DNA of 37,312 nt from an uncultured Clostridia bacterium (GTDB lineage: Bacteria > Bacillota > Clostridia > Christensenellales > Aristaeellaceae). Numbering within the stretch: position 1 is the stretch's first letter; every line of letters starts with the position of its first letter. The stretch lies in the NCBI GenBank assembly GCA_946615785.1, contig CAMOIA010000001.1, forward strand, positions 1 to 37,312. Reading direction: 5' to 3'. Below the pieces are notes generated by a model, which was given only the letters and a program-made list of their open reading frames with translations, searched no databases and was not told the DNA's origin. Below are positions 1-27,785 of the stretch, one piece after another. Made by a program: the position numbers and the translations under genes.

Positions 1-50
1 CCGCCGCAGCCCTCTCCGCCGCAGCCCTCTCCGCCGCAGCCCTCTCCGCC
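1..50. repeat. 15-bp tandem repeat ccgccgcagccctct (3.3 copies); a duplicate of 37263-37312 (assembly overlap)
   Basis: Direct reading. The unit is 15 bp (5 codons) and encodes (AAERA)n on the minus strand. Confidence 0.95.
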
Positions 51-2935: not shown

Positions 2936-3390
2936 TTGCCTTTTTGCTGCTCCGCCTTCTGGCTTTCAAATTCCGCATACAGCTCGTCCGCGCTGCACAA
3001 AAATGCCGATGCGAGCCTTTCCATCGTCGCCGAGCCGATACGCCTCACGTGCCCGCACTCAATCACGGAAATGTACACCCGCGAAACCCCGGACACCTGC
3101 CCCAGCCTTTCCTGTGTCATCCCGGCGTGAAACCGTCTGCGCTTCAGCCAGTTTCCCGGTTCCGGCTTCTTCTTTCTTTCAGGCTTCCCCCATTCCGCTT
3201 CCATCTCTTCTTTCAGTTCCGCAGCCGTGCACCCGAACGCTTCCGCCAGATTCTCTACTGTTTTCCTTTTCAGCGTTTTGAAGCGCCCGTTTTCCACCAG
3301 GCTGATATAGCCCTGCTCCGTCCCGATCAGATCCGCGAGTTTTTGCTGCGACATTCCCGCCGCCGTTCGTCTGTCCCTCAGCCAGCTCAT
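2932..3390 (-). CDS. Tandem double XRE-family HTH protein (152 aa)
   Basis: ATG 3390 follows AAAGGAGGA and overlaps the upstream stop as ATGA. There are two HTH_3-like units: 'GMSQQKLADLIGTEQGYISLVENG' and 'GMTQERLGQVSGVSRVYISVIECG'. Confidence 0.8.
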   Translation of the reverse strand: MSWLRDRRTAAGMSQQKLADLIGTEQGYISLVENGRFKTLKRKTVENLAEAFGCTAAELKEEMEAEWGKPERKKKPEPGNWLKRRRFHAGMTQERLGQVSGVSRVYISVIECGHVRRIGSATMERLASAFLCSADELYAEFESQKAEQQKGK

Positions 3391-4670: not shown

Positions 4671-5264
4671 ATGAAAAAACAATCCGGCAGATTTAATAGA
4701 TTTACGCGGATCATGCTCCTCCTCTGCTGTGTCGCCACCGGCATGATTTTTGTGTATTACCACGGCAAAGCCTACCCATGGCCAAAGGAAACGCCCGTTT
4801 CTTTTTCCACGGAATCGCCCGCACCCGTCTCCCTTCCGCAGCCACGCGCGACGGCTGCCCCGGCCTATGCGTATGCCCAGCCAATTACCTTTACAACATC
4901 CACGCCGCGCCCCTTTAAGACCTTCCGTCCCCTTACGCCTGTTCCTGAAAGCTTCCGGTCATCATCCGAAAACAGCGCGACGGCCCCTCCGTCATCGTCC
5001 TCGCGCATCGGTGCAAAGCCCGCCCCGCAGTATTATGCTTCCGTCAGCACCGCCGCCCCGCAGCGCTTCGCTTCCGTTCGCACCGCCGCGCCCGCCCAGA
5101 ATCTTGGGCGCTACACCCTGAACCTTGAATCAAAGGTCATTCACGATCCTGAATGCCACACCATCGAACGCACCTCAGATTACAAACTCCAGACCGGTTA
5201 TTTCGATCTGGATGCTCTTCTCCGGCAGGGCTACCGCCGCTGCCACACCTGCTGGCCACGCTAA
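4671..5264 (+). CDS. Membrane-anchored Pro/Ser/Thr/Ala-rich protein with a C-terminal Cys/His metal-binding-like domain (197 aa)
   Basis: ATG 4671. N-terminal 'RIMLLLCCVATGMIFVYY' is a TM anchor, followed by a low-complexity linker. C-terminal 'VIHDPECHTIERTS...GYRRCHTCWP'. Confidence 0.7.
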   Translation: MKKQSGRFNRFTRIMLLLCCVATGMIFVYYHGKAYPWPKETPVSFSTESPAPVSLPQPRATAAPAYAYAQPITFTTSTPRPFKTFRPLTPVPESFRSSSENSATAPPSSSSRIGAKPAPQYYASVSTAAPQRFASVRTAAPAQNLGRYTLNLESKVIHDPECHTIERTSDYKLQTGYFDLDALLRQGYRRCHTCWPR

Positions 5265-5553: not shown

Positions 5554-5617
5554 CCCCTTGCGCTTTTTCGTCTATTCGTTTACACTTGTCTTAAATCTTT
5601 TATTTTTTGGAGGAAAC

Positions 5618-6775
5618 ATGGAAAGAAAGCTGCGCCGCGATGGTCGAAAGCACCTCACGCGGCGACCCGACGGGCGTTTCAGACTTCGATACAAAGACCA
5701 ATACTTCTACGGCTACACCGAAGACGATGCCTACGCCCGCCTTGATGAATACAAGGCCCTTGAAGCTGCCCAGGCATCCGCCCGCCGGGATCCCACCGTG
5801 CAGGAATACGCCACCGCCTGGCTGCCGCGGAACAAAGTCGGCATCGGTCTCAAAACCTATAATGATTACGCCCTGAAAATTGACCAGGTGAACGAGACCA
5901 TTGGAAGCATGAAAATAAAGGACGTCACACCCAGCGACGTCAAGCGGTGCTATCTTCGGTATGAAGGCCTCAGCGAGAGCACCATCCGCCGCACCCGGAT
6001 GCTGTGGGTGTCCATTTTTGAAAGCGCCGTTGCGGACGGCCTGATCCGCTACAACGTTTTCAAGGATAAAACCGCCCGCCCGCATAAAGGCACCCAGGGC
6101 ACGCACCGTGTGCTCACGCAGGAAGAAAAAGAACTGATTGATCGGGTTGACCACAAGCTGCGCCCGCTGGTGATGGTCATGCTGTACGCCGGCCTGCGCC
6201 GCGGTGAGGCGCTCGCCCTGGTTGTTGATCGTGATGTGGATTTTACCCGCAATATCATCCGGGTGCGGGAATCCGTTTCTTATAACGGCAATGAGCCCGT
6301 TCTGCATTCCGGCGGGAAAACAAAAAACGCGGCCCGGGAGATCCCGTTGCCCGCCCGCCTTCGCGCTGAACTCATCGGCAGAACCGGCAGGCTCTTTACC
6401 GGTGAGCACGCTGAAATTGCCACGGAGACCGCCTTCCGCCGTGCTTGGGATAGCTATCTGACCGCCCTGGAACGCGCAGCCAACAACGGCATTGCAAAGC
6501 GCTGGTGGGGCAAAACGAAGGCCCAGCGCGCCGGCGGGCCTCCTGGTGAATGGAAAAGCATTTCCATCCGCCCGCACGATCTGCGCCACACCTATTGCAC
6601 CATGCTCCGCGATGCCGGCATAGAAATGAAGGTTGCCATGCGCTGGATGGGGCATAGCGATGAACGCATGATCCTGAAAATTTACGATCATGAAGAAGGC
6701 CGGCTGCAGGCCAATTCAGCAAAGCTCGATGCATTTCTATCCGGCGCGCCCGAACAAAAGGCGGCAGGCATTTAA
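5618..6775 (+). CDS. int: Tyrosine recombinase / phage integrase (385 aa)
   Basis: ATG 5618 follows TTGGAGGAAAC. Catalytic signature 'GLRRGEALAL', 'HDLRHTY', 'GHSDERMILKIYDH'. Adjacent to the tRNA-derived attP. Confidence 0.92.
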   Translation: MERKLRRDGRKHLTRRPDGRFRLRYKDQYFYGYTEDDAYARLDEYKALEAAQASARRDPTVQEYATAWLPRNKVGIGLKTYNDYALKIDQVNETIGSMKIKDVTPSDVKRCYLRYEGLSESTIRRTRMLWVSIFESAVADGLIRYNVFKDKTARPHKGTQGTHRVLTQEEKELIDRVDHKLRPLVMVMLYAGLRRGEALALVVDRDVDFTRNIIRVRESVSYNGNEPVLHSGGKTKNAAREIPLPARLRAELIGRTGRLFTGEHAEIATETAFRRAWDSYLTALERAANNGIAKRWWGKTKAQRAGGPPGEWKSISIRPHDLRHTYCTMLRDAGIEMKVAMRWMGHSDERMILKIYDHEEGRLQANSAKLDAFLSGAPEQKAAGI

Positions 6776-6794
6776 GCCCGCCGCCCTTTCTTTT
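6760..6794. terminator. Bidirectional terminator between the convergent int and giant ORF
   Basis: ggcggcaggc-atttaa-gcccgccgcc stem. It is followed by T-rich runs on both strands. Confidence 0.6.
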
Positions 6795-9700
6795 ACTGTA
6801 CACGCTTGAGCGCTGCTTTTTTCAGGGTTTCAATCTTGTCGGATGTGTACCCGTGATTGATCAGCATATTTACAATGCCGTTCGCTCTCGCGCTGTCGCC
6901 CGCGTTGTATGCCGCGGCCCATGCGTCCATCACCTCGGTCTGTGCCTTGTTCAGGGCTGTGATTTCGATCCCGTACCGGTTCGCCGTCAGATACAACGCC
7001 TGATTTTTCTGCACGTCCTCGGTGCTGCTCCTCAGGCCCTGGATGCTGGTTTCCATCTGCCTCGCCCGTTCAGTGTCGCCCGCGGCCTCCCACGCTGCCC
7101 AGCTCTGGTAATAGCCGTGCTTCGTGTTCGCTGCGCCTTCCACAAGCGCGCCGCCCGCGTTCACCTTGTTCATGCGCTCTTCAATCGCGTCCCGGCTCCA
7201 TCCGCCGTCCTCGATCAGATCGCCGATTACGGCCTCCGCAAGGGCCTCGTTCCCGATGGCCCGCGCCTGCATCGCAAGGTCAACATAATCGTTGAAGTTG
7301 GCTTTTGTCTTTCCGTACCCGATATTTTCTTCGTACCGCATCCGCCAGTACTGCACCGTCAGGGTGTCCACACCCATGCCCTGCATAACTTTCGGAATCC
7401 AGTTTGTAAGATACTCGGCTTCTTTCGCAACGTTTCCGACCGGGATGCCCAGCACGTTCGCGATTTTTGCCACAAAGTTCGTGCACGTCGCCGCCACGGT
7501 TTTTTTGCTGTCCTCGAACGTTGCCTTGTAGCAATCCTGAAAGGCCTGGTACAAATCCGCAATCACGCTCAGGTCGCTGCGCTCAACGTCGTACCCTGCC
7601 ATGATTTCATTCACGTCCCGCATAAATGGAATCATGTTCATGGGGTTCAGCTCGCTCCCAAGGTTGCTCCCGAAGACCGCCTCCTGGAATACCTCAAACG
7701 GGTTTTTGTCCGTATAGTCGCCAAGCAGCCTTTTCAGGAAATCCTCCCAAAACTTGTCTGGGTCGTCCATCTTGCGCAAGGCGCTGATAATGCTTGCCAC
7801 AACCGCCTGCAGGGTGTTGGCCGCAACCACCACCGCGCCGGTGCTTAAAAGCGCCCGCCTTGTGCTCCAGCTCTTGTGCATTCTGAATGCGTCCAGTTTG
7901 TCCATGAACGTGTTGAACGTTTTCAGCGGCTCGCCCATAAAGCTTGTGATCATCTTCACGTATTCCGTCCGCCCGCGCATGATCTGCGTCCGGTGCAGGA
8001 TGCTGTCCACCACCTGCGTCCGGTCAATGCAATCATTAAAGCGTTCGGTCACAAGCTCCCAGTACCTTTCGCTGCCCTTCTGAATGTCCCGGTTCTGCGA
8101 TCCCACCATGTTCTTGGCTGCCTGCCAGATGTTCGCCCAAGTCCAGTTATCCATAGCCCCCGGCAGCTTCATGCCCCAGTCCTGCACTTTGCCGCGAACC
8201 ATCTCGAATCCGTGCTTTTTCGTCTCCGGGAAAAGGATGTCCCAGACGCTCTGACCGGCGTCAAGCACAAAATTCCCGCGCTGTTTCCAGGAATAGATCG
8301 GGCTGTGCTCCTTCATTTCCCGAATATTCTGCGCCACGTTCACAAGCCCGCCGGCCCTTGCGGCGACGCCCGCCCAGTATCTCGCCGGGATCACGTCGAA
8401 GGCGCGGACGAATGAAAGCGGCTGCTTGGCTGCCGTGCTCAGGTTCCAGGCCACCGCGGCGCCCTTGTACTTGGCAAGCAGGCTTCCGAACCAGCTGCGC
8501 TCGATCGCGTCCTGGCTCAGTCCGTTAATGTCCTTGATCAGCTGCCGGAAATAGGGCATGGCGTTCTCGCCCATCAGAAGGCCCATATCCTGCGAAAAGC
8601 TCCCGCTTGCCTTCCGGATCTGCCGGGTGCGCCCGTCGCTTTCTCTCACCTCCGTTTCCTCGCTGTGCTTCATGTTCATCAGCCTTGCGATGTCCGCCAT
8701 TTCGCGCCCCCAGGCGTGATACGTAATCATCTCCATGGCGTGCTGGCCCGTCAGCTGGAATATATCATTCAGCATAATCGGCGCCGTCGCGTGCTCCATC
8801 AGGCTCTTTGTAAAGCCCTGGTTCATGATCATGTAAAAGGCGTTCTGCGTGTCGTTGGTCATGGTCTGGCTTGTGTACCCGGGTGCAATCTTAATCGGAA
8901 TGTACGCCTTGTCCTTGTATTTCCGGTACCCGTACATTTCCATGCTTACCTCGTTGCCAAGATCGCTGCACCACCCGTTCATGATTCCGCCCAGCGCGTC
9001 CGCGCATTTTTTCTGCTCGTCCGTCAGCTGGCTTATAATCGCGTTCACCTGCGCCATGGTCACGTGCTGCGGCCTCATGGTCTTGAGCCGCTGGCCGTGC
9101 TCCGCTTCCGTAAGGCCTATATAAATGCCGCCGCCGACCATCTCGCCCTTGGCATTCCGCTCGCCCACAACGTGCCTTGCCGCGTCCGCGCGCTGCATGT
9201 ACTTATACAGCGTCATGGCCTGGCCCACGGTCATCCGGATGCCGGCGCCCTCCAGCACCTGCGCGTTCCTGCCCGTCCACTTCCAATAGTTCTTGAACGG
9301 CTTCAGCGCGTCCGCAAACCGTCTTTCCGCCTCGTCCACGTCCGTAATCTGCCGGTCAAGAGATTTGCGCAGCATCGTCCAAAGGTCTTTGCCGATCTGC
9401 CCGCACTCCCTCTCCATCCGGCTGAAAAAGCGGATTGGATCCATAAGACTTCCCTGAATCTGTCTGTTTACGGCCCGCGCAAGCCTGCCCGCCAGTTTCT
9501 CTGTGTTCACCTGCTCGGCCCGGGTCTTCATCTCGCTTTGCATCCGGCGCAGATCCTCGCCGCGTTTCAGCGCAAGGCTCTTGCTTTCCTCGGAAATCAT
9601 GTGCAGGATGCTCTCCAGCGTTTCCGCCGTCGCTTCCAGATCTTGCGCGTTCATGCTCCGGATGTTCTGCCCGTTCACCCGGTCTGCAAGGTCTTTGATT

Positions 9701-12700
9701 TTGAAATCAAGATCCGGGTCGGGGATGACCATGGCGCCGTCCTCGTTCATGATGTTCTGCACGGCGCTGCGCAGCGCGTTAAATTCCATCGTCCTCCGGC
9801 TGCCTTCAAATCCGCCCGGCTCCAGCATACCCAGCGCCTGCGCCACCTGCATCCGGTGCTGCTCAAGCACGTTCTTGTTATTGGTCGGTCTCAGCAGCCG
9901 GTCGGCCAGCTGTCTGTACACCCGGTCAACGCGCTTTTGCAGCTGTGTGCGCCTCACGGTGTCCCGGTATCTGTCCATATCCCGCTGCAGCGCCTCGCGC
10001 ATTTCCTCGTTGGCGGTTGCCCTCGCGGCTTCCTCGATCTGCTTTTGCCTGTTCTGGAAATTCTCCTCCAGCTTCTTCCGGTCTTCCTGCATCTGCTGGT
10101 CAAGCTTCTTCCGGTATTCCTCCAGCTGCACCGCCGCTTCGGCCTGCTGTCTCTGCAGGGTTCTCGTCTCTCTCCTATCAAGCTGCTTTTTGCGCCTGTC
10201 CAGTTCCTTTGCGCGGTCTTGCAGCTCGATCTCCCTTTGGTTCATCCTGTGCCAACTGTCTCTTGCCGATTCTTCTGTCTGCCTTGCGTTTTCCTCCCGT
10301 TCCGCGTATTCCTGCCGGAGCTCCTCCTTCAGTTCCCGTCTTGCGTTCTTCATTTTCTCCGCGTATTCCTTCGCGGCCTGTTCCCGGTCTTCCGTAAGGC
10401 GCTCCGCGTATTCCGCCTCCAGCTTCTGCTCGGCCTGCTGGTAGTGTTTCACGCCCTCTCGGATCATCTTGGCGTATTCCTTCTGCTGGTCTGTCTGCTG
10501 CCCGTTTCTTATCACCTGGCTCGTCAGGCCGTTCTCAGCGCCGAACCATCCCCAAAGGATCCGCGCGCTCATGTCCTCCACGAACGTGTCACGGTCTACC
10601 CCGTTGTATTCGATCACGGTTTCGCTTTGCCGCAGGCGCTTGGCATGATCCAGCATGGCGTCAAAGCGTTCCAGCAGGTCGCCCTCGTTCAGGTCGCTCG
10701 CAAGCAGCCACGGGCTCTCCGCCTGGATGTCCTCAAGGGTCAGGTTCGACCGCATCTTCTTTTTGTCCACCGTGAACGTCAGCCAGCCCCGGTATTTCCG
10801 GTTCATTTCCGCAACGGATTCATACAGGAGCCGTGCCTCCTGCGCCTGCCCGGTGGTCAGATAGATCGTCGTCCCCCTGTGCTGGCTCAGCCAGTCAAGG
10901 ATCGGGTCGCCCTCCTCAAGCGTTTCATTGTGGTTTGTTGCGTACCCGCTCCTGTCCGCCATTTCCTCCGCAATCGCCCTGGCATAATCAATCGCCTGTT
11001 CAAAGTCGAAATCCTCACCTTCCAGCAGCGCGTTATCAAGTGCCAGATACATCCCGCGGATTCTGTCTGAAAGCGTCTCCGCGCTCATTCTAAGGCCGCC
11101 CATGCCCTTGATGATCGGGTATTCGTTTTTGATCTCCTGTACCAGTGCGGCAATGTTATAGGTGCCCACCTTCGGGCTGTCCTCCGTGTGCCCCATGTTG
11201 TTGAACATGATGCCCTGCTTCAGCATCTGGTAAATTTTCGTCATCATGTTCCGGGCTCTGTCGCCGCTGGCAAATCGCCTTTGCAGGATTTCCCGTGCCG
11301 TTTCCTCGCTCATGGCGTCGCGCATCTTCAGGCTGCTCCGGCTCTCTTCCACGGCCTCCCGGGTGCGGTCTTGGCTTTGCTGCTGATCCTGCTGCGCCTT
11401 CCGCACCCGTTCCAGCTGTCTCGCGGCGAATACCACCTGATCCCGTTTCAGCCCCTCTTCAAGTGCCGGCACGCCGTAGGTGTCCTCCAAAGCTTTATCA
11501 AGGCTTTTTTCGCCGTCCGTGTACTGCTTCAGCACTTCCTCAACCTGGTCAGCGGCCTCGCTCACGGTCATGCCGTTTTTCGCCATCCATTCCGCCATCC
11601 AATTCATGCCATAGGCTTCCACCACGGCCTGAAGGCCCAGCGTCTTTGTCGCGCTGTATTCCTGCCCGACGTGCCGTGTATATTGTATCCGCCTGAAATA
11701 ATCCCCGGCCAGATCGCTCTCCCGCAGAACGGTGCCGTACGCGATCTCATTGCGCCGGTTCGTCGCCTCCTGAACCTCACGGCGCAAAAGGTCGCCGACG
11801 GTTTCCACGTACTCGGCCTGGTTCATCAGTACCTGCGTCTCGCTGCTCTTCCCGGCGATCCGCCTGATGGTGGATTTCATCCATTCGCCAAGCTCTTTGA
11901 TATGATCCGCGAACCGTGAAACGTCGCTTTTCTTCATCTGCTCGCCGGTTTCCCGCTGGTTCTGCCGCAGAACGCCAAGGCCCACGCTTTCAGAATCCGC
12001 CAGCATGTCCAGCATACTGTCCGCCACAAGCTCGCTCACGGCGTCCACGTTCTCGCCGCTCTCGTTGTACCGGCGCCGGATCGTCTCAAGCCGTTCGTTC
12101 ACATCAAAATCCGCGTTGTTGTTCAGCCAGTCCATCACCGCATCGCGGATCCGCTCGGCGCCTTCCTTGTTGAATTGCTCCACATAATGGAACGCTTCAT
12201 GGCTCGCGGCCCGCACCAATGCGCCCTCGTCCGCGTCCAGGGCGATATCGATGCTCGCTGTGTTCCGGTTGTACCTCGCGTTCTGGTCGCCCAGGGTGTC
12301 GTATACGTTAAAGGTTAGCCCGTAGCGGTATGCAAGCTCGTCCAGCACGTTCAGCTGCTGCACCTGCCGCTGCGTCAGCGGATTGATAACGCGGTTGAAA
12401 TAAATCCCGCTGTCCTGCTGCTGCCCTTCCTCGTACACCCTGAAGCCGTACTGCCTCGCGTTTTCCCTCGTCCGCTCATTCCAGGCGCGCACCTCGGCTT
12501 CCCGCTGTTCCCGGCCCATTTCCCACGCCTGCCGGATGATGTCCTCCGAACTGCGCAGAATGAACGGGTTTTGCATGTTCAACTCCTGCCCGTGCCGTCC
12601 GTACCGGTATGCCGCCTCCGCTGCCCGGATGTCGTTTTCCACCTGGTTCTGTGTTTCGCTGTCCGCGTCCATGATCCTGAACACCCGTTCAAACGGTGCG

Positions 12701-15700
12701 CGCCTCGTTTCGTGCACCTCGCCGATGCCGTTCTGCGCGTCCGGAATGGTGTCGCTTTTCATCACCCGCAGCCCGTCGTCGCCTGCCCTGCGCATCATCC
12801 GCTCAAAGCGCTGCCGGTAGCTCTCTCCGTTCATCAGCTGGATAACGGCCGCCGCGTCCTCGTCGTTCTCCACAAGCAAAAGCACCCGGTTGTTCAGCCC
12901 GTCGTCGTCGCTCTTTGCCTCCTCCGCGGGTCTGGTTACGGTTCTGTCCCCGGCCTCGGTCGTCGCCACGGTCGTGTCTCTTACGGTTCTCCCGCCGTCC
13001 GTGTCCTCCGCTTCTTCGGTGCTTTCGGTGCCGTTCAGCTTGGTCACGCGCTCCCGATTGTCCGCGGCCTGATCCCTTGCGGGTGTGCTGGTTTCTGTCT
13101 GTTCCGGCGTCTGCTGCGGCGCGCGCGGTACGGGCTGTTCCATCTGTGTTTCGCTCTGTTCTGGCGCCTGTCTTTCCTGACCCGGCTGCCCCTGCTCGTC
13201 CGTCCGGCCCTCCATGTACTCCTCGGCGGCCGCCCGGGTGTCCTGTCCGGCTTCCTCGGCGGTCAGCTGCCTTGCGGGTGCCTGTGCAGGCTGCTCCGTC
13301 CGCGTCTGCTGCTGCCCTTCCATGTACTCCTCAGCGGCCGCCCGGGTGTCCTGTCCGGCTTCCTCGGCTGTCAGCTGTCTCGCGGGTACTTGTGCCGGCT
13401 GCTCCGTCCGTTCGCCCGTCCGGCCCTCCATGTACTCTTCCGCCGCCGCCCGGGTGTCCTGTCCGGCCTCTTCTGCCGTCAGCTGCCTCGCGGGTGTATT
13501 TTCCGCCGGCTGCTCCGCCTGCGCCTGCTCGTTCGTCCGGCCCTCCATATATTCCTCGGCGGCCATCCGGGTGTCCTGTCCGGCTTCCTCGGCGGTCAGC
13601 GGTTCGCGCTCGCTTTGCGTTTCCGTCTCCGCATCAAAGCCCCAGCTTTCCCGGAATTCCCTCCAGCGGTTCAGGGCCGCGTCGTAGTCCCATTCCCGGT
13701 CAATCTGTTCATTTGTTCCGTACACCATGTCCGCGGCCGCCTGTTCAAATGCGCCCGGTTCTCTTTGCTGTTCCTCCTGCGTTTCCGTCTGGTTGTTCTC
13801 CGCAAATTCATTCCAGCGCGCAACGGCCGCGTCATAGCTCCACGCCGCTTCCGCCTGATTGCTCCGGTGCCTTGCCTGGCTCTGGCTCAGCCTTCTGTCG
13901 CCGCTCTCCCTGGTTCGGTTCTGAAGCTCGGCCTTGGCATCGTTCAGGCCCCGCTGCAGGTATTCCGCAAGGTTCGTCCGCCCGATGGCAATGGTGCCGT
14001 CCGGCGCGATGCCCACGCCAAAACCCTCCCGCGATGCGTTCACGGCCCGGCGCAGCGCTGCCTGATCGTATTGACGGTTCCCGCCTTCCTCGCTCGACGG
14101 CATCACCAGCGTATTCACGTTCCGGCCCGCTTCCTCGATGGCCTGCTGCTGCTCCGCCTGGCGCTGCCTTGCCTGCTCCGCGGTGTTGGCCACCTCCTGC
14201 GCGATGGCCGCTGTGCGCGCGTTTCTCGCGTTCTGCGCCTGCTGTTTCAGATAGCTTGCAAGCTGGTACGAGCCCACCACAATACTGCCGTCCGGCGCCA
14301 TGCCCACCTGATAGCCGTGCCTGGCCGCGTTGTCCGCCTCCACCAGCTGGCTTGCCCTGTACATGGGCCGCCCGCTTTCCCTGTTGGCTGTCGGCGTGAT
14401 CACGGTGTTCACCGCGTTCTGTGCCCGGTTCTCCGGCAGGTTCCTCTGGTATTCCTGCTCCCGCCTCTGTTCCATGGCAATTTCAAACGCCCGTTCTTCG
14501 ATGCCTTCCCGCAACTGCTGCCGGTTCTGCTGCCAGCTTCCGTACGTGCTGCCGCCCAGATCCATCACGCCGCCGGAAATTCCCGAAACAATAAAAGTAT
14601 GCAAAAGCTGGTTTGTATGATCCACGCTCGCCTGATGCCTCGCGGCGGTCAGTGCCTCGTCCGCGTCGGTATACGTTCCGGCCTGCAGGTATTGCCGGTA
14701 GTAGTTCTGCACGTCCCGGTTCCAGGCGCTCTCGTCCTGCATCAGCCAGTTTTGCACCTGGTTCGTTGATATATCGTTCAGCACTTCTGTCGTTGATTCG
14801 GAAAAGGCGCCCACCAAGGTGTTCCAGACCGTTGTCCCCACTTTCTGCCAGGTCTTGCCGTCCTTTGGCAATCCCCGGTTCATCGCGTTCCAGAAATGCG
14901 CGTCGGAAAGCGCCTCGGTCGCAAACTCGCTCATGGCTGAAAGCCCCGCCGTCAGGAACAGGTCTTCCTGGTTGTGCGTTGCGTTGTTCTCCGCCGCTTC
15001 CGTGTAGTAATTGGAAAAGGATCCATAGGCCATCAGGCCCGTGCTCATCCAGCTCGGCATCCCGATTGCGTGATTGGTTACCATGCGGGTTACATTCTCG
15101 CCGATGTTCATGGCCGTGTCGTATACATCATTCCAGATTGTCTGCTTTCCGCCGTTCGCCTTCCTGATGGCCTCGTTCGTCGCGTTTTTAATCTGTTTCT
15201 GACTCTGTGTCGGGTTGTTGTATATTTCGTTCGGATCAATCTCTTTCCCGGTCACATGGCTCAGAATCATCGCGCTTGTGCTGACTATTTTCAGCGGCTC
15301 GGCGCTCAAGTCCGAAACCGTTCCGACAATGCCGCCGACAACCGGATTTTCACCTACAAAGCGGTTCCAGTTGGCCTGTTCTGTGTCCGTTCTCCTTTCA
15401 TTTGCCGTCTGTCTGATGGCATCTAAGAAGTTAAGCCCCTTTTCGCTGTCCTCGCCGTAAAGAATATAAAAGGCGTCTCTTTCGTCCTGCGTCATGAACG
15501 CCAGTTGGTTGTCTATCATCCAAGGCAGATACGGCGCTTCTTCGTTAAGATACCGCGTTGTCTCCGTTCTTCTCGTTTCTCCCGGCTGATCTGTGTCTTT
15601 TTCGTGCATACTTCTCAGGACATAATTGGCGTCCTTTTCCATGTACGCATTTCTTCCGCGCTCGGCTGCTTCCTGCCTCCCGTCGCCGATCTCCTGCAGC

Positions 15701-16962
15701 GTCTGATACCCCTGCAAAAGCGCCTTTTGCCTTTCAAGATCCCACCGCTGCTGCTGGATCCCGGCATCTCCCTGCCAGCTGTCCATCGCCTCCAGCTCGT
15801 CAAGGCGCGCAAGCGCCGCGTCAATTTTCGCAATGCTCCCGGCCGGATCCGCCCGCATACTGTCCTGCAGATCCAGCTGCCGCAGGCCCTCTTCCAGCGC
15901 CGGCTGCCGCCTCTCCCGGTCTGCTTCGCTTGTGTAATTCATCTGCGCCCGGATGGCGTCCCGGTCTTCCGCGGTCTGCGATACGTCAAACGGGTTAAAC
16001 CACGTCTTTGTCAGGCCCTCTGGGGTTCCGTTATAGATTTCTTCATATTCCGCAACCGTCTCCGGGTGCCTCTCTTCAAACTGTGTCTTTTGTTCCGCTG
16101 CTTCCTGCCGGTACATTTTCGCCAGCATTTCGTCCCGAACCTGGCTTTCCGTCACGTTTTCCCCGGCATACAGCCGCCTTCCGTATTCGTCCTCCACCTC
16201 GCGCTGGAAAGCCTCGTATTCTTCGTCTGTCATGTTTTCAAAGGGGTTCACATAGGTCGTGGCTTTCCTCTGCTTCTGCTCGTTTCCCCTTGCGTTTACA
16301 TAAAACTCCGTATCTTCCCTGCTCGTATCGAAGCTCCCGCCCGCGCTGCTCCTGCGGTCAGGTTCCGGCACTTCCTCAGCGGGCCCGAAGCTTCCGCCCG
16401 CGCTGCTTCTGCGCTCAATCTCCGGCAATTCCTCAGCGGGCCCGAAGCTCCCGCCCGCGCTGGATCTTCGGTCGAACGCCGGATCCGGGCCGAAACTCCC
16501 ACCCGCGCTGCTCCTGCGGTCAAGTTCCGCATTCCGGTGCAGGCTCTCCACGGCCCTCTCCCTGGCCCCGTTCCTCAGCCTCTCGATTGCCTGGTCAAGC
16601 ACGCTGGCCGCAGCCGGGTTGCGCGCAATCGGCCCGTATGCCATCTCCTGCGCCTGCGTCCTTTGCTGCCTTGCCGTCCGTTCAAGCGGCGAGACGGGTG
16701 CCATCTGGCTTCCTGTTCTTTCTTCCCTGCTGCCTGCAATGGGCGCAATGGGTTCCAGCGCCGACCGCTGTGCCGTCCTTTGTGCCTGCTGTGCCTGATG
16801 CGCGCTGCGAAGCCTCTCCGCAAGCACGTCCGCGGCAATGGATGCGGTTCTCTGCTGCTGTGCCGCCCGCTGCATTTCCAGCCGATCCTCTTCCCGGCTA
16901 ACGGCGTTGGCGGTCGCGAGTCTGTCCGCGGCCGCCTCCACAATTCTTCTGTCAAGTGGCAT
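6793..16962 (-). CDS. Giant multi-domain virion-associated (polyvalent/ejection-type) protein, 3,389 aa, with a central HExxH zincin-like motif
   Basis: Uninterrupted ORF with ATG 16962 after AAAGGAGGGGG. It is the last gene of the virion operon. 'AASHEAFHYVEQ' (HEAFH at aa 1588-1592, nt 12187-12201). Gly/hydrophobic segments at aa ~535-810. Coiled coil at nt ~9950-10460. Several internal repeat families. Confidence 0.85.
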   Translation of the reverse strand: MPLDRRIVEAAADRLATANAVSREEDRLEMQRAAQQQRTASIAADVLAERLRSAHQAQQAQRTAQRSALEPIAPIAGSREERTGSQMAPVSPLERTARQQRTQAQEMAYGPIARNPAAASVLDQAIERLRNGARERAVESLHRNAELDRRSSAGGSFGPDPAFDRRSSAGGSFGPAEELPEIERRSSAGGSFGPAEEVPEPDRRSSAGGSFDTSREDTEFYVNARGNEQKQRKATTYVNPFENMTDEEYEAFQREVEDEYGRRLYAGENVTESQVRDEMLAKMYRQEAAEQKTQFEERHPETVAEYEEIYNGTPEGLTKTWFNPFDVSQTAEDRDAIRAQMNYTSEADRERRQPALEEGLRQLDLQDSMRADPAGSIAKIDAALARLDELEAMDSWQGDAGIQQQRWDLERQKALLQGYQTLQEIGDGRQEAAERGRNAYMEKDANYVLRSMHEKDTDQPGETRRTETTRYLNEEAPYLPWMIDNQLAFMTQDERDAFYILYGEDSEKGLNFLDAIRQTANERRTDTEQANWNRFVGENPVVGGIVGTVSDLSAEPLKIVSTSAMILSHVTGKEIDPNEIYNNPTQSQKQIKNATNEAIRKANGGKQTIWNDVYDTAMNIGENVTRMVTNHAIGMPSWMSTGLMAYGSFSNYYTEAAENNATHNQEDLFLTAGLSAMSEFATEALSDAHFWNAMNRGLPKDGKTWQKVGTTVWNTLVGAFSESTTEVLNDISTNQVQNWLMQDESAWNRDVQNYYRQYLQAGTYTDADEALTAARHQASVDHTNQLLHTFIVSGISGGVMDLGGSTYGSWQQNRQQLREGIEERAFEIAMEQRREQEYQRNLPENRAQNAVNTVITPTANRESGRPMYRASQLVEADNAARHGYQVGMAPDGSIVVGSYQLASYLKQQAQNARNARTAAIAQEVANTAEQARQRQAEQQQAIEEAGRNVNTLVMPSSEEGGNRQYDQAALRRAVNASREGFGVGIAPDGTIAIGRTNLAEYLQRGLNDAKAELQNRTRESGDRRLSQSQARHRSNQAEAAWSYDAAVARWNEFAENNQTETQEEQQREPGAFEQAAADMVYGTNEQIDREWDYDAALNRWREFRESWGFDAETETQSEREPLTAEEAGQDTRMAAEEYMEGRTNEQAQAEQPAENTPARQLTAEEAGQDTRAAAEEYMEGRTGERTEQPAQVPARQLTAEEAGQDTRAAAEEYMEGQQQTRTEQPAQAPARQLTAEEAGQDTRAAAEEYMEGRTDEQGQPGQERQAPEQSETQMEQPVPRAPQQTPEQTETSTPARDQAADNRERVTKLNGTESTEEAEDTDGGRTVRDTTVATTEAGDRTVTRPAEEAKSDDDGLNNRVLLLVENDEDAAAVIQLMNGESYRQRFERMMRRAGDDGLRVMKSDTIPDAQNGIGEVHETRRAPFERVFRIMDADSETQNQVENDIRAAEAAYRYGRHGQELNMQNPFILRSSEDIIRQAWEMGREQREAEVRAWNERTRENARQYGFRVYEEGQQQDSGIYFNRVINPLTQRQVQQLNVLDELAYRYGLTFNVYDTLGDQNARYNRNTASIDIALDADEGALVRAASHEAFHYVEQFNKEGAERIRDAVMDWLNNNADFDVNERLETIRRRYNESGENVDAVSELVADSMLDMLADSESVGLGVLRQNQRETGEQMKKSDVSRFADHIKELGEWMKSTIRRIAGKSSETQVLMNQAEYVETVGDLLRREVQEATNRRNEIAYGTVLRESDLAGDYFRRIQYTRHVGQEYSATKTLGLQAVVEAYGMNWMAEWMAKNGMTVSEAADQVEEVLKQYTDGEKSLDKALEDTYGVPALEEGLKRDQVVFAARQLERVRKAQQDQQQSQDRTREAVEESRSSLKMRDAMSEETAREILQRRFASGDRARNMMTKIYQMLKQGIMFNNMGHTEDSPKVGTYNIAALVQEIKNEYPIIKGMGGLRMSAETLSDRIRGMYLALDNALLEGEDFDFEQAIDYARAIAEEMADRSGYATNHNETLEEGDPILDWLSQHRGTTIYLTTGQAQEARLLYESVAEMNRKYRGWLTFTVDKKKMRSNLTLEDIQAESPWLLASDLNEGDLLERFDAMLDHAKRLRQSETVIEYNGVDRDTFVEDMSARILWGWFGAENGLTSQVIRNGQQTDQQKEYAKMIREGVKHYQQAEQKLEAEYAERLTEDREQAAKEYAEKMKNARRELKEELRQEYAEREENARQTEESARDSWHRMNQREIELQDRAKELDRRKKQLDRRETRTLQRQQAEAAVQLEEYRKKLDQQMQEDRKKLEENFQNRQKQIEEAARATANEEMREALQRDMDRYRDTVRRTQLQKRVDRVYRQLADRLLRPTNNKNVLEQHRMQVAQALGMLEPGGFEGSRRTMEFNALRSAVQNIMNEDGAMVIPDPDLDFKIKDLADRVNGQNIRSMNAQDLEATAETLESILHMISEESKSLALKRGEDLRRMQSEMKTRAEQVNTEKLAGRLARAVNRQIQGSLMDPIRFFSRMERECGQIGKDLWTMLRKSLDRQITDVDEAERRFADALKPFKNYWKWTGRNAQVLEGAGIRMTVGQAMTLYKYMQRADAARHVVGERNAKGEMVGGGIYIGLTEAEHGQRLKTMRPQHVTMAQVNAIISQLTDEQKKCADALGGIMNGWCSDLGNEVSMEMYGYRKYKDKAYIPIKIAPGYTSQTMTNDTQNAFYMIMNQGFTKSLMEHATAPIMLNDIFQLTGQHAMEMITYHAWGREMADIARLMNMKHSEETEVRESDGRTRQIRKASGSFSQDMGLLMGENAMPYFRQLIKDINGLSQDAIERSWFGSLLAKYKGAAVAWNLSTAAKQPLSFVRAFDVIPARYWAGVAARAGGLVNVAQNIREMKEHSPIYSWKQRGNFVLDAGQSVWDILFPETKKHGFEMVRGKVQDWGMKLPGAMDNWTWANIWQAAKNMVGSQNRDIQKGSERYWELVTERFNDCIDRTQVVDSILHRTQIMRGRTEYVKMITSFMGEPLKTFNTFMDKLDAFRMHKSWSTRRALLSTGAVVVAANTLQAVVASIISALRKMDDPDKFWEDFLKRLLGDYTDKNPFEVFQEAVFGSNLGSELNPMNMIPFMRDVNEIMAGYDVERSDLSVIADLYQAFQDCYKATFEDSKKTVAATCTNFVAKIANVLGIPVGNVAKEAEYLTNWIPKVMQGMGVDTLTVQYWRMRYEENIGYGKTKANFNDYVDLAMQARAIGNEALAEAVIGDLIEDGGWSRDAIEERMNKVNAGGALVEGAANTKHGYYQSWAAWEAAGDTERARQMETSIQGLRSSTEDVQKNQALYLTANRYGIEITALNKAQTEVMDAWAAAYNAGDSARANGIVNMLINHGYTSDKIETLKKAALKRVQ
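13207..13599 (-). repeat. Four in-frame tandem repeats of 108-117 nt encoding 'LTAEEAGQDTR(A/M)AAEEYMEG...PARQ'
   Basis: Read directly; aa 1122-1252 of the giant ORF. Confidence 0.9.
16330..16521 (-). repeat. Four in-frame repeats encoding 'RRSSAGGSFGP' (the last copy is 'RRSSAGGSFD')
   Basis: aa 148-211 of the giant ORF. Copies differ by synonymous codons (CGC/CGA Arg, AGC/TCC Ser, GGA/GGG Gly). Confidence 0.9.
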
Positions 16963-16978
16963 ATTCTTGCCCCCTCCT

Positions 16979-18463
16979 TTAATATGCGATTCCCATTCTC
17001 CTCAGTCTCTCCGCAAGGTCTCTGTCAGCCTGCGCAAGCCGCGCAAGCTCCGCCTCCGTCTGTGCCTGCGTGTTCATGATCATCGGGTTTCCGCCGGTCG
17101 TCGGGGTTGTTCCTTCGGTGGGTGCCGTCGGCGTCTGCGTCCCCGTCGGCGCCTGCGTGCCCGTCGGTTCCGGCATTCCGGTGTAGGTGTGCTGCCACTG
17201 GTTCACCGGCGGCGTTGTGCCTGGCAGCGGCACCCGGTACAGGCTCCCCGTTCCAAGGCTCTCCGTCACCGCGTTTTGCAGTTTCGCGTCCGTGTCCCTC
17301 CGGCTGTGCAGCATCTGCGATTCCCCGTTGTCCCTCCTCGCGGTGCCGCCTCCGCCGCCTCCGCCGCCGCCGGCGCTCGCCGTATCCTGCACAAGCCCGC
17401 CGGCGATCTGCTGCACGGCTGCCGCCACAACGGGGTCGTCCGCCATATGGCTCAGCATGTTGTAATAAAAAGCCCTGTCGTCCTGCCACTGTCCAAGCTC
17501 CGCGCTGTATCTTGCAAGGTCGTTCGCGTTCTCGGTGTCGTATCTGCCCGCATAATAATTCCGGTCGGTCAGATAGTCGCCCACCTGGTCGCGGTATCTC
17601 GCGTAGTCCGTGCTGTCGCGGTTCAAAAGCGCATTCAGACGGTTGTATTCCGCGTCCTGGTCGTCCATGTACCGCTGATACGCCCTGTCATACAGTCCCG
17701 GCATCTGCGCGTTCAGCCCGCTCAGATAGTCCTGATACTGCTGCTGCCCCGCGCCCTGCGCGTAGGTGTTCCCGTATCCGCCTGTAAGCTCCGCGGCGCT
17801 TGCCATGGTGTCCTGCATCGCCCGGTTGCCAAGCCGCAGATACTGATCCCGGTAATTCCGGTACAGCGGATCCTCTTCCGGGTTATAGGTAAAGCCTTCG
17901 CGGTCGCCAAGTCCCTGCAGAATCTGGTCAATCTGCGCGTCGTACCGGCTCTGCCATGGATCCGGCCTGGTGCCTTCCCAGTTCTGCAGCCGCTCAAGCG
18001 CCTGCCGCGTCCGCTCGCTTTCCTCCAGCGTCGGCTCGTTCTTCTGGCTTTCGGAAAACTGCGTCAGCACCGTGCTTGCGCCCCGCGGGTCAAGCCTCTC
18101 GTTCCCGTTCACGTCCGTAAACGTCAGCGGGGTTCTTTCAATGCCCGTCCCGTAGGTTCCCGCGGCCTGCGCGGCCCCGCCGGTCACGTTCACCGGTGTC
18201 CCGCTCCCGGCTGCCGCGGCCCCGATGCCCGTCACGTTCGTTCCCGTCACGCCGGCTGCGCCGTGCGGTATCATCGTCAGGGCGTTGCCTGAATATTTCC
18301 CGTTGGTGTCCATATAAACGCCCTGGCTTCCGCTGTTGATGATCCTCTGCGCGGCCGCCGCGGTCACAGGCGACGCCGCCTGCTGCGTGTTCTCCGCGCC
18401 CGGCGTTTCCTCCTCCCGCCGGATCTCCGTGTCCAAAATCTCGCCCTGCCTGTATCTCGGCAT
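16979..18463 (-). CDS. Virion protein of unknown function (494 aa); low-complexity Gly/Thr/Pro tracts and a Tyr/Asp/Arg-rich core
   Basis: ATG 18463 follows AAAGGAGGAAG. It contains a G11 run and 'PTGTQAPTGTQTPT'. Located between the nozzle-like gene and the giant ORF. Confidence 0.75.
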   Translation of the reverse strand: MPRYRQGEILDTEIRREEETPGAENTQQAASPVTAAAAQRIINSGSQGVYMDTNGKYSGNALTMIPHGAAGVTGTNVTGIGAAAAGSGTPVNVTGGAAQAAGTYGTGIERTPLTFTDVNGNERLDPRGASTVLTQFSESQKNEPTLEESERTRQALERLQNWEGTRPDPWQSRYDAQIDQILQGLGDREGFTYNPEEDPLYRNYRDQYLRLGNRAMQDTMASAAELTGGYGNTYAQGAGQQQYQDYLSGLNAQMPGLYDRAYQRYMDDQDAEYNRLNALLNRDSTDYARYRDQVGDYLTDRNYYAGRYDTENANDLARYSAELGQWQDDRAFYYNMLSHMADDPVVAAAVQQIAGGLVQDTASAGGGGGGGGGTARRDNGESQMLHSRRDTDAKLQNAVTESLGTGSLYRVPLPGTTPPVNQWQHTYTGMPEPTGTQAPTGTQTPTAPTEGTTPTTGGNPMIMNTQAQTEAELARLAQADRDLAERLRRMGIAY

Positions 18464-18476: not shown

Positions 18477-20060
18477 TTACAGCTCGCTTCCCGCGTCCAC
18501 GGTATAGTACAGATTAAACAGTTTCACTTCCCCCTGCCCGCTCAGGCGGATGCGCATATGGTCGCAGCGCTTGGGGATAATGTTGAACGTTTCCGCCTTC
18601 ACCTGCTTTGCGCCTGTCCGCACAAAATACGTCTTAAAGGGCCCGCCGTCCGTCGATACGCTCACCGTCATCTCCGCGCCTTCTGAAAGCGCGTAGCGCA
18701 CCTGGATCTTCCGAAGGTGCTTTTTAAACATCGCCATCATGTCCAGGTCGCCTGTCTCCGCCTTCCAGGGGATCGTCTCTTCCTCCGCCGCGTCCTCCGC
18801 CGCGTAATTTTCGTCCCCGCCCTTCAGCCGCCAGAGGTTCCCCTGCCCGTCCACGCCGTACAGCGTCCCGTTCGCAAGGTGCAAATCGCTAAGGCCGCTC
18901 TCGTCCTCCCGGTGCCAGATCCCGCCCCGGAACGTGTACAGGCTCCGCTTTCCGCCGCTTTCCATGCTGATGTACAGGCTGTCAAAGCCGCAGCAGCTCA
19001 CCGCGTTTTCAAACTTCTGCCCGTAAAAGGCGCCGTGCGCGCTCGCCGGCAGCCCCCCGTCGTAGGCCATCACCCCGTGCGGGCTCAGGTAAAACAGCAC
19101 CCCGTCCAGCGTCGCAACGCTCTTTTCGCTCCCCGGATCAATCCCCGCGGCCTCCGTGTCCGTCAGCTGGTAATTGCTCGGCCTGGATCCAAACAGCTTC
19201 AGAATCCGGTCGCTTTTGAAGAAAAGCACGTACCCGTTGTGCACCCCGGCCCCGGTGAACGCACCCGGACTGCCCACGGTCACCGCATAGGCGTCATTTG
19301 CAAGCCCCTGATACTTCCGCCAGTTCTTGGGATCCCCCAGCGCGCAGGCGTATACTTCATGGTTTGCGCTCGAACACCCCCAAAGCCGGTTATCACACTC
19401 GGTTACAAAGTCCATGTCCGGCACGTCCCTCGTGATCTGGATGCCCGTCCCCGTCGTCTCGTCTTCGTCCAGCGTCGCAAGAATCACGAAGCTGTCCGCG
19501 GTAACGCTGTATATCTGGTACATGCCCTCGGCTATAATTTCGCTTTGCGCAATCGTCACGACGTCATTTTCCGAAAAGCCCGCCCCGATTCCCTCCGCGC
19601 TCAGCTTTGCGTACACCGCCGATCCCGCCGGGATCGCCTCGCCCATCAGGTCGCAGGCCGTGTACGTCACCGTCCCCGCGATGCTCACCCGGTTTTCAAG
19701 CGTTTCCATTTCGCCCGTCTGCGTGTTAAATGCCTTCTTGTCCGGGAAGATCACGAACCTGGCACCCATCGGGATGATCTGGTGCCGCCCCGCGTTCACC
19801 TCGCCCACCTGCTGCCCGCCGTAATACACTCCCGTCCCGCTGATCCACCCAAGCGCGTCATGCCCGAACAGCTCCGCACCCGGCAAAAGTGTCCGCATTT
19901 TCTTCCGCCGGTCTCTTGTCCTGGTTACCGGCGCGTCCTCGCCCGTCAGGTTCTCCGTGTCAAAGAACGCGCCCGCGTGCCCGAACGGCCCCCGGTTCAG
20001 TCCCTGAAACGCGTACCCCTGCTGCGTGTATCCGCCGATTGCGTTCTGATATGTCAGCAT
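18477..20060 (-). CDS. Putative tail hub/nozzle protein (527 aa, beta-rich)
   Basis: ATG 20060 is 8 nt after GGAGG and overlaps the upstream TGA by 1 nt. The function is guessed from size, position and beta-propeller-like repeated G/W/Y patterns only. Confidence 0.75.
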   Translation of the reverse strand: MLTYQNAIGGYTQQGYAFQGLNRGPFGHAGAFFDTENLTGEDAPVTRTRDRRKKMRTLLPGAELFGHDALGWISGTGVYYGGQQVGEVNAGRHQIIPMGARFVIFPDKKAFNTQTGEMETLENRVSIAGTVTYTACDLMGEAIPAGSAVYAKLSAEGIGAGFSENDVVTIAQSEIIAEGMYQIYSVTADSFVILATLDEDETTGTGIQITRDVPDMDFVTECDNRLWGCSSANHEVYACALGDPKNWRKYQGLANDAYAVTVGSPGAFTGAGVHNGYVLFFKSDRILKLFGSRPSNYQLTDTEAAGIDPGSEKSVATLDGVLFYLSPHGVMAYDGGLPASAHGAFYGQKFENAVSCCGFDSLYISMESGGKRSLYTFRGGIWHREDESGLSDLHLANGTLYGVDGQGNLWRLKGGDENYAAEDAAEEETIPWKAETGDLDMMAMFKKHLRKIQVRYALSEGAEMTVSVSTDGGPFKTYFVRTGAKQVKAETFNIIPKRCDHMRIRLSGQGEVKLFNLYYTVDAGSEL

Positions 20061-20431
20061 CAGACCAGCCTCCATCTTCCACGCACGTTCCCCTTCGGTT
20101 TGTGCTCCCGCCGGTACCAGGCCTTCCATTCCTTCATCATGCTGTTATAAATCGCGGCGTCATTGTTATACCGGTCATATTCGCCCATCTCCCGGTCGCG
20201 CTCCGCCATCAGGCGGTAAACGTAGGCCATTTCAAACCGCTTTGGCAGCCGCATTTCCTTCCCCGCGTTCTCCGCCGTGATCTCCCTCGGCTCCGCGGTG
20301 GCGGGCACATGCCGGTTCATGTGCTCGCCGATCTCGTTCTCCATGTCCGTCAGCGCCTTGTACAGCGCCTCTTCCAGCGCCTCGCCCGGTCTGAGCTCCT
20401 CCGCCATCTCCAGCGCCATCTCCGCCGTCAT
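20060..20431 (-). CDS. Small virion protein, possibly a head-tail connector/adaptor (123 aa)
   Basis: ATG 20431 follows TAAGGAGGGAAC. The function is inferred from position only. Confidence 0.7.
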   Translation of the reverse strand: MTAEMALEMAEELRPGEALEEALYKALTDMENEIGEHMNRHVPATAEPREITAENAGKEMRLPKRFEMAYVYRLMAERDREMGEYDRYNNDAAIYNSMMKEWKAWYRREHKPKGNVRGRWRLV

Positions 20432-27505: not shown

Positions 27506-27785
27506 GGATCATCACCTCCACGTGTTCCGGGTGCGCCTCCGCCAGTCTCTTCAGGCTCGCGCTGCAGGCGGTCAGCACTGCCCGCCACTTCTCCCCGCGT
27601 CCCTCCGCGCGCACCGTCTCCCCGTCGTCCGCCTGGTTCCCGCCAAGCATCGCGCACCCGCACCGAAGTACGTCGCTTGCCATGCTCACCGCCGCGCACA
27701 CAATCTCCCGGCCCGCCTTTTCCTTTTCCGCGTGCCCGGTGATCAGGATCCGGCCCGCCTCCGGCTCTATCTTCACCCGGATCAT
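27486..27785 (-). CDS. prp: Prp-family (ribosomal L27-processing-type) cysteine protease homologue (99 aa)
   Basis: 'ITGHAEKEKAGREIVCAAVS' matches the Prp His...Cys dyad pattern GHA-x(n)-(D/E)IVCAAVS. ATG 27785 overlaps the portal stop as ATGA. Confidence 0.75.
   Translation of the reverse strand: MIRVKIEPEAGRILITGHAEKEKAGREIVCAAVSMASDVLRCGCAMLGGNQADDGETVRAEGRGEKWRAVLTACSASLKRLAEAHPEHVEVMILGGHAD

Follow-up and report, generated by a model that had tools for sequence, protein, structure and literature searches.

The giant open reading frame

The 37,312-nucleotide (nt) contig CAMOIA010000001.1 of an uncultured Clostridia bacterium (hereafter the window, meaning the whole stretch of DNA that was analysed) carries a phage genome in which nearly all genes lie on the minus strand. 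It contains a giant open reading frame (ORF) of 10,170 nt, or 27.3 % of the genome, that encodes a protein of 3,389 amino acids (aa). Judging from its sequence, this giant protein belongs to a known class, the phage-type polyvalent proteins, and represents an effector-poor member of it. An earlier note, made from the DNA letters alone, had drawn attention to the ORF and its size (27 % of the phage genome), and the ORF was verified. The repeats, the HEAFH motif, the charged stretch and the hydrophobic helix listed in that note were likewise all located where it had placed them. The main features are the following.

6793-16962, minus strand: giant ORF (3,389 aa plus stop codon, ATG start), putative polyvalent-type protein, last gene of the virion module
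16970-16980, minus strand: Shine-Dalgarno sequence AAAGGAGGGGG, ending 7 nt before the ATG of the giant ORF
6753-6792, minus strand: hairpin and U-tract of an intrinsic terminator, immediately behind the giant ORF
14383-15555, minus strand: module A (aa 470-860), E-x-x-T-E / EGxEE-type helices and a Gly-rich hydrophobic end
11263-12675, minus strand: module B (aa 1430-1900), predicted zincin-like metallopeptidase followed by helical bundles
12187-12201, minus strand: HEAFH (aa 1588-1592), with predicted zinc ligands H1588 and H1592 and predicted catalytic base E1589
12031-12033, minus strand: E1644 in 'SELVADS', invariant, predicted third zinc ligand
7153-9945, minus strand: module C (aa 2340-3270), the C-terminal hallmark module of the family, mostly helical with two short beta regions
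7780-7848, minus strand: Ala/Ser/Val-rich hydrophobic helix followed by an acidic patch (aa 3039-3061), within module C

A strong Shine-Dalgarno sequence had been claimed for the giant ORF, and AAAGGAGGGGG was indeed found at this spacing; it overlaps the stop codon with which the 494-aa gene upstream ends. The hairpin behind the ORF is 14 bp long, G+C-rich and followed by UUUUGUU (-29 kcal/mol, z = -4.5). Since the convergent integrase ORF (5558-6775, plus strand, phrog_1) terminates within this hairpin, a shared bidirectional terminator, as the earlier note had proposed for the two genes, is plausible.

The giant ORF is genuine and no assembly artefact. The presence of two tandem repeat arrays inside it could point to a chimeric ORF made from collapsed repeats, and the chance of this is negligible. 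A separate 37,426-bp contig encodes a protein in the same 90 % cluster (P0158, 3,425 aa) that is identical to the giant protein apart from a single substitution and an additional 36-aa acidic repeat following aa 1156; this independent contig rules out the mis-assembly that had been named as a possible refutation. A more distant relative (P0159, 3,330 aa, 41 % identity) is collinear with the giant protein from residue 1 to the end, and the architecture is common to thousands of proteins. The identity to P0159 is 60-74 % in the C-terminal module, 52-63 % in two internal module cores and 18-37 % elsewhere. Because P0158 is near-identical and P0159 collinear from end to end, the giant protein is best read from these comparisons as one conserved architecture with a varying number of repeats and not as a recent mosaic. 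The description of the ORF as a 'mosaic of seven parts' was thus not upheld, as three of these parts are conserved modules in a fixed order.

Conserved modules of the giant protein

HEAFH is the only HExxH in the giant protein. It is no isolated motif but part of an invariant HExxH...E zincin signature. When two independent alignments of module B were inspected, one of them built from trimmed segments, H1588, E1589, H1592 and E1644 were invariant in both. In the AlphaFold model of aa 1430-1900 (predicted local distance difference test (pLDDT) 81.3, predicted template modelling score (pTM) 0.72), the HExxH helix is preceded by a helix and a three-stranded sheet and followed by the helix with the Glu, which is the order given by Iyer et al. 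2017. In addition, hhalign paired module B with the HExxH domains of N4 gp50 and phi24B gp47. The domain is therefore predicted, on the strength of its signature and modelled topology, to be a zincin-like metallopeptidase of the kind found in polyvalent proteins. A profile search of module B against PDB returned helical noise only. M61 aminopeptidase and PprI were among the weak top Foldseek matches of the model and were not counted as support.

Module C is recognised by invariant columns within the motifs GNExSM..YGYxKF, NxKAAAV..QQP, WKxxG, DxTQVVDSxxHR and FMxEP. The model of aa 2340-3340, computed from an alignment of 25 sequences, had a pLDDT of 74.7 and a pTM of 0.70. When it was compared with PDB, no solved counterpart was found (best Foldseek E = 0.47; helical noise only in the profile search). 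The comparison with BFVD gave 76 models at E <= 1e-3, with TM-scores of 0.45-0.62 for the best, and all of them are C-terminal pieces of giant viral proteins. The names of these matches include 'PolyVal ADP-ribosyltransferase', 'large polyvalent protein-associated domain-containing', 'nuclease' and 'MuF C-terminal domain-containing', and a weak match was a 'structural protein' of Tenacibaculum phage Gundel_1. The model comparison suggests that many different phage polyvalent proteins share module C as their C-terminal end. The module corresponds to no Pfam family, and no description of it was found in the sections of Iyer et al. 2017 (PMC5512222) available to us.

Only one segment, the hydrophobic helix at aa ~3037-3061, exceeds a Kyte-Doolittle hydropathy of 1.5. 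Its composition is kept across the family (x-R-T...S...A...S..DA.RDDD).

Class membership and extent of the family

Iyer et al. 2017 (J Bacteriol; PMC5512222) describe polyvalent proteins as giant proteins in which disparate enzymes are combined. They occur in phages and conjugative elements, have their genes among the late ones and are predicted to reach the host together with the DNA. The hub domain seen most often in that study is a zincin-like metallopeptidase, which is proposed to cut the protein into its functional units. The giant protein agrees with this description in two respects. It is a large polypeptide encoded among late virion genes (3,389 aa, last gene), and it has the zincin domain, in which the HExxH helix is preceded by a three-stranded sheet and the Glu lies on the next helix; HExxH...E is invariant and this topology is present in the model. 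In a third respect it differs, as the combination of at least two disparate effector domains was not found in the giant protein itself. It was found in homologues that share the same chassis, i.e. module A, the zincin domain and module C. When 12 long relatives were scanned with Pfam, ART-PolyVal was detected in 7 and Peptidase_M23 in 3, and PBECR5, PBECR3, GNAT and LPD3 were each detected in single members; the relative P0001 carries PBECR5. The ART-PolyVal, PBECR, GNAT, LPD3 and M23-type domains of the relatives were all defined in the polyvalent-protein study (PMC5512222).

Searches of Pfam, NCBIfam and PDB sequences with the whole giant protein and six segments gave nothing above threshold. 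This agrees with the earlier note, which had seen no polymerase, nuclease, ART or lysozyme signature; the Pfam scans of the whole protein and its segments contained none. The same note had recognised no motif in the C-terminal region, which holds for Pfam, NCBIfam and PDB sequences but not for PHROGs, where phrog_22978 ('unknown function') covers aa 2258-3224 (E = 3e-122). Modules A and C also differ from the polyvalent proteins described so far in that they lie outside the Pfam LPD/PolyVal families (no Pfam match even at E = 1). A fusion of the MuF or SPP1 gp7 type was considered and rejected, because no Phage_Mu_F match was obtained in the giant protein at E <= 1. Taken with the domains of its homologues, the reading already offered in the earlier note, a giant virion-associated and host-injected protein comparable to polyvalent proteins and to the N4 virion RNA polymerase (vRNAP), is the best one.

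The size of the family was estimated with an exhaustive HMMER search of aa 2250-3389 against 1.84 billion cluster representatives (E <= 1e-3). In total, 3,559 clusters matched this C-terminal query, 2,586 of them at E <= 1e-30. The proteins among the top matches listed were mostly 2,000-4,700 aa long, and the match stopped a median of 163 residues before the C-terminus. The C-terminal region had been put forward as undescribed biology; it is instead the most conserved part of the protein, as the 3,559 clusters and the 76 BFVD models of named polyvalent proteins indicate. A word-indexed homologue search was nearly blind to the family (1, 0 and 6 matches).

When the modules were mapped by iterative searches (jackhmmer) among the best 150 homologues (151 sequences), the order A, B, C was the same across the relatives, with module A in 82, module B in 121 and module C in all of the sequences. 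In IMG/VR, 480 contigs encode a relative; these are typically 22-54 kb and have the gene near one end. The GTDB genomes gave 92 matches, almost all from gut Clostridia, including cultured strains of Oscillospiraceae, Lachnospiraceae, Flavonifractor, Enterocloster, Oscillibacter and Butyrivibrio. Among the cultured carriers are Flavonifractor sp. An100, Enterocloster lavalensis KCTC 15153, Clostridium sp. AM22-11AC and Butyrivibrio proteoclasticus P6B7. This distribution agrees with the 59 % G+C of the window and with its SH3-domain protein. Only a few unannotated gut or faecal fragments were obtained when both halves of the giant protein and a divergent module C were compared with 50,697 phage records (INPHARED) by tblastn, and the phrog_511 partner protein (see below) likewise matched only unannotated gut fragments in these records.

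The chassis can also be distributed between two genes or considerably shortened. This follows from an 11,545-bp Logan contig (L004, ERR4561311) in which a 1,099-aa gene lies between a homologue of the 494-aa gene and a 1,908-aa polyvalent protein, the latter being composed of PBECR5 and module C.

Repeats and lineage-specific segments

The segments outside the three modules are as follows.

15556-16962, minus strand: N-terminal helical and acidic region (aa 1-469), lineage-specific, candidate cargo
16318-16524, minus strand: four copies of (D/E)RRSSAGGSFGP with a 19-aa period (aa 147-215), absent from P0159
13933-14412, minus strand: duplicated ~60-aa module (aa 851-1010), also in P0159
13147-13629, minus strand: four acidic tandem repeats of 36-39 aa (aa 1112-1272)
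10423-11265, minus strand: middle region M (aa 1900-2180), moderately conserved
9943-10425, minus strand: E/R/K/Q-rich stretch (aa ~2180-2340), predicted coiled-coil spacer

The region of aa 1-469 is conserved in the closest relatives only, with 19-37 % identity to P0159. The DNA array of its RRSSAGGSFGP repeats was detected by Tandem Repeats Finder (TRF) at 16329-16462. The two copies of the duplicated module are found at aa 851-913 and aa 949-1010.

The acidic repeats were detected by TRF as a 108-nt period at 13207-13600. Their copy number differs between otherwise identical phages, with four copies in the window and five in P0158, and P0159 has a different, unrelated acidic repeat array at the same position. 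Such acidic repeats of variable copy number could be spacers or nucleic-acid mimics, the second idea being pure speculation.

Region M is less distinctive and was present in 137 of the 151 sequences of the iterative search. The E/R/K/Q-rich stretch is without Gly or Pro at aa ~2200-2340 and aligns with P0159 at 18 % identity and 29 % gaps.

Virion genes and other features of the genome

In transcription order, the virion genes encode the small (TerS) and large (TerL) terminase subunits, portal, capsid protein, tail fibre, a 550-aa protein, a 494-aa protein and the giant protein, which bears out the claim that the giant ORF is the last gene of the virion operon. The two genes directly upstream of it are its conserved partners.

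18477-20129, minus strand: 550-aa protein, phrog_511 'internal virion protein', conserved upstream partner
16979-18463, minus strand: 494-aa protein without family match, conserved upstream partner

Homologues of both partners were found upstream of the giant gene in 55 of the 80 related viral loci fetched; thus, the phrog_511 gene, the 494-aa gene and the giant gene form a conserved trio. This bears on the possibility that the giant protein is no virion protein at all, but a multi-domain protein expressed from the prophage or early in the cytoplasm, for example for superinfection exclusion or defence. The gene does adjoin the integrase at the prophage end, a frequent site of moron and accessory genes, and the family is without proteomic support. 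Nevertheless, we consider this improbable, since the gene lies on the same strand as the virion genes, its Shine-Dalgarno sequence overlaps the upstream stop codon with no terminator in between, the trio is conserved with an 'internal virion protein', the class to which it is homologous is found among late genes, and it has collinear matches to the N4 vRNAP (see below).

From its genes, the phage looks like a podovirus. The portal is P22-like (PF16510), and the major capsid protein belongs to phrog_1357 and also matches N4 gp56 (phmmer E = 1.3e-9 against 12 N4 proteins). With this podovirus-type module, no tape measure is expected. The earlier note had the giant ORF replacing any recognisable tape-measure or ejection module, which does not fit, as there is no tape measure to replace and the phrog_511 and 494-aa genes lie directly upstream. 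The giant protein is very long and largely helical and has Gly/hydrophobic stretches, as an ordinary tape-measure protein of a long-tailed phage would; even so, this identity is very improbable. No tube, sheath, tail-assembly-chaperone, baseplate or tape-measure families were found among the virion ORFs scanned, the giant protein has no tape-measure match in Pfam or PHROGs, and the P22-like portal and N4-like capsid protein point elsewhere. A tape measure of 3,389 aa would also imply, by scaling, a tail of ~500 nm on a 37-kb genome. The homologues, which the earlier note had allowed might prove to be ordinary tape-measure proteins, carry ART and RNase domains, and the zincin site of the giant protein is intact.

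A 15-nt tandem repeat, CCGCCGCAGCCCTCT, is present in ~3.5 copies at both ends of the window (1-52 and 37258-37312; TRF). As the same repeat is found at both ends, the contig closes on itself, and the 37,312-bp sequence is probably a complete genome, circular or terminally redundant, with the break inside the short tandem array. No tRNA or Rfam families were found in the window.

Several neighbouring genes were also recorded. The mechanically called portal ORF (27782-30028) and the large terminase ORF (29905-31335) overlap by 124 nt (29905-30028); the true portal start is probably further downstream, because the PHROG portal match begins only at residue 192. Between the portal and capsid genes, a 301-aa protein (25491-26396, minus strand) with an SH3_3 domain and weak amidase/endolysin PHROG matches could be a virion-associated wall-binding protein or lysin. 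The tail-fibre-like protein (20445-21752, minus strand) has a C-terminal GDSL/SGNH hydrolase domain (PF13472) and may be a receptor-modifying esterase or deacetylase. A 331-aa protein (32111-33106, minus strand) has matches in phrog_3584 and phrog_3419, which are replication-initiation families of the rolling-circle type; a replication module of this type is uncommon in tailed temperate phages. Finally, a 33-nt tandem repeat of 2.3 copies (5020-5095) lies ~460 nt upstream of the integrase ORF and could represent arm-type integrase binding sites or part of attP.

Similarity to the N4 virion RNA polymerase

The alignments of the modules were compared with an alignment of 12 Schitoviridae vRNAPs using hhalign, with 12 block-shuffled decoy alignments as controls; seven decoys on an earlier 8-sequence vRNAP alignment had given similar maxima. 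Module A (aa ~654-808) aligned with gp50 326-443 with a probability of 68 % (E = 5e-5, score 54 versus a decoy maximum of 26), and both share an EGxEE-type helix followed by a Gly-rich hydrophobic segment. Module B scored 43 against the HExxH region of gp50 (decoy maximum 21). The matches of modules A, B and C are collinear on gp50, falling in its N-terminal, HExxH and C-terminal parts. On these profile comparisons, the module A match is probable homology, that of module B would be a superfamily-level similarity, and that of module C is a lead only. According to Iyer et al. 2017 (PMC5512222), the N-terminal region of gp50 is needed for injection and its C-terminal region for encapsidation.

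At the level of single sequences, BLASTP of the giant protein against N4 gp50 found nothing and hhalign against the single N4 sequence was not significant. The giant protein is not considered an N4-like RNA polymerase (RNAP), as there was no Pfam RNAP match, no BLASTP similarity and no match of region M to the vRNAP profile. When single sequences of four other virion proteins of the phage were compared with N4 gp51-gp61, nothing was found.

Proposed function and alternatives

It is fairly likely, in our view, that the giant protein is a capsid-packaged and ejected delivery chassis, consisting of module A, the zincin domain and module C, with a self-processing peptidase and putative cargo. We infer its packaging, ejection, self-cleavage and effector activity from the comparisons given above. 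The giant protein would be translated along with the virion module, and up to about a dozen copies would enter the procapsid by way of module C, in analogy to what the C-terminal part does in the N4 vRNAP. On infection of Gram-positive Clostridia, it would leave the capsid via the portal and the short tail, either ahead of the DNA or along with it, accompanied by the two partner proteins (the phrog_511 'internal virion protein' and the product of the 494-aa gene). Module A, which would correspond to the injection region of N4 gp50, and the hydrophobic helix of module C may help it to cross or line the envelope. The HExxH...E peptidase would then cut the polypeptide or a host target, and cleavage could free aa 1-470, the duplicated 60-aa modules and the acidic repeats as early effectors. 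The same slots in relatives would hold ART, PBECR RNase, GNAT or M23 domains.

Several results weigh against this explanation. The giant protein has no recognisable effector domain in the Pfam, NCBIfam and PDB-sequence searches of its six segments and full length. Packaging of the module C family is argued from analogues, and 0 cultured INPHARED phages have module C. The module C match to gp50 ~3115-3253 is weak (probability 2 %, E = 0.03, score 36 versus a decoy maximum of 28), and profiles of the 550-aa and 494-aa partners gave no match to N4 gp51-gp61, including gp51-gp55. Modules A and C did not match phi24B gp47. Predicting the structure by domains and searching it with Foldseek, as the earlier note had advised, yielded models of modules B and C but no significant PDB match for either. 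No solved zincin was found for module B (none at E <= 0.001), and no T7 gp16, P22 or crAss cargo ejection protein was found for module C.

Some of these results would suit a purely structural role, in which the giant protein is an ejection or conduit protein without effector role, the Gram-positive counterpart of T7 gp16 or P22 gp20. In that case the peptidase would mature the conduit or cut cross-links in peptidoglycan, and the length of the protein would be set by the variable and repeat regions acting as spacers. The giant protein yielded no effector domain, its gene sits after two conserved internal-protein genes as gp16 does after gp14 and gp15, and the Gly-rich hydrophobic segments and the one conserved hydrophobic helix are in keeping with a conduit. 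So are the varying repeat number and the other acidic repeats at the same place in P0159, as for spacers, and the phi24B authors propose such a role for gp47 (10.64898/2026.04.10.717836). However, most of the long relatives scanned carry ART, PBECR RNase or GNAT domains, which act in the cytoplasm, on the same chassis; thus, the chassis evidently delivers cargo. Furthermore, solved ejection proteins resemble it in neither fold nor sequence, and the N-terminal 470 aa, at 19-37 % identity with P0159, retain more than a spacer needs. We therefore regard a purely structural role as unlikely and favour the delivery chassis.

A broader proposal can be made, and only tentatively. Module A, the zincin domain and module C may constitute a chassis for protein injection in general, with an ancestry in common with those parts of the N4 vRNAP that lie outside its polymerase; thousands of temperate podophage-like prophages of gut Clostridia would use it with swappable cargo. 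The segments without recognised domains (aa 1-470 with the RRSSAGGSFGP repeats, the duplicated 60-aa modules and the acidic repeats of variable copy number) might then be new early effectors, e.g. anti-defence or DNA-mimic proteins.

Significance

Some phages use giant capsid-packaged proteins to bring enzymes into the cell ahead of all phage gene expression, and very few such proteins have been investigated (N4 vRNAP, P1 Dar proteins, crAss cargo proteins and phi24B gp47). The family described here comprises thousands of proteins in prophages of dominant human-gut Clostridia, none of them characterised. Its fixed chassis with exchangeable inserts would be a natural catalogue of early effectors and possible anti-defence proteins, and the family is a candidate for use in delivering proteins to Gram-positive anaerobes. 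The link between module A and the injection region of gp50, which is tentative, would carry the N4 paradigm to phages outside Schitoviridae. The general concept dates from 2017, and a gene of this kind has already been reported from Enterocloster prophages. What remains of interest are the chassis modules A and C, the tentative N4 vRNAP ancestry and the abundance in gut Clostridia prophages without a cultured model.

Comparison with known systems

The giant protein resembles phage-type polyvalent proteins as a late-gene giant with a zincin hub, predicted delivery with the DNA and homologues carrying ART-PolyVal, PBECR, GNAT, LPD3 and M23 domains, and it differs from them in having no recognisable effector domain of its own.

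T7 gp14/gp15/gp16 and P22 gp7/gp20/gp16 are stored in the capsid, ejected and form a trans-envelope conduit. As in these phages, three consecutive genes end the virion module with the largest one last. Unlike the T7 and P22 ejection proteins, to which there is no sequence or fold similarity (PDB sequence, profile and Foldseek searches), the giant protein is 2-3 times longer and has a peptidase.

When compared with N4, the window phage is temperate, has a genome of only 37 kb and a Gram-positive host, lacks an RNAP domain in its giant protein and has partner proteins unrelated to gp51-gp55. On the other hand, the gene order with the giant gene last corresponds to that of N4 (portal, capsid protein, gp53-gp51, vRNAP), the capsid proteins of the two phages are related, and the giant protein resembles gp50 in its length (~3,400-3,500 aa) and HExxH peptidase domain.

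The temperate Stx podophage phi24B encodes gp47 (2,811 aa), which carries LPD1, LPD5 and LPD38, is abundant in purified virions by proteomics and absent from the cryo-EM map, and is proposed by its authors to be a capsid-stored ejection protein (10.64898/2026.04.10.717836). Its gene (locus vb_24B_48, 2,807 aa; Traversvirus/933W-like) is the last one in the GenBank genome record. Unlike the giant protein, gp47 comes from a phage with a Gram-negative host, and modules A and C are not detectably related to it. Both are encoded by a giant last ORF of a temperate podophage, and two HExxH domains of gp47 match the module B profile (hmmsearch E = 3e-5).

Phages phi1 and phi4 of Enterocloster (Clostridium) clostridioforme LM41 are predicted podovirus prophages with spontaneously released particles, and each has an 8-kb 3'-terminal ORF, ~20 % of the genome, that resembles LPD3-containing Podoviridae proteins (PMC11318856). 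These ORFs probably belong to the same family as the giant ORF, a homology that is taken as a lead. Like the window phage, phi1 and phi4 are podovirus prophages of gut Clostridia with a giant 3' ORF, and members of the family described here were found in Enterocloster genomes.

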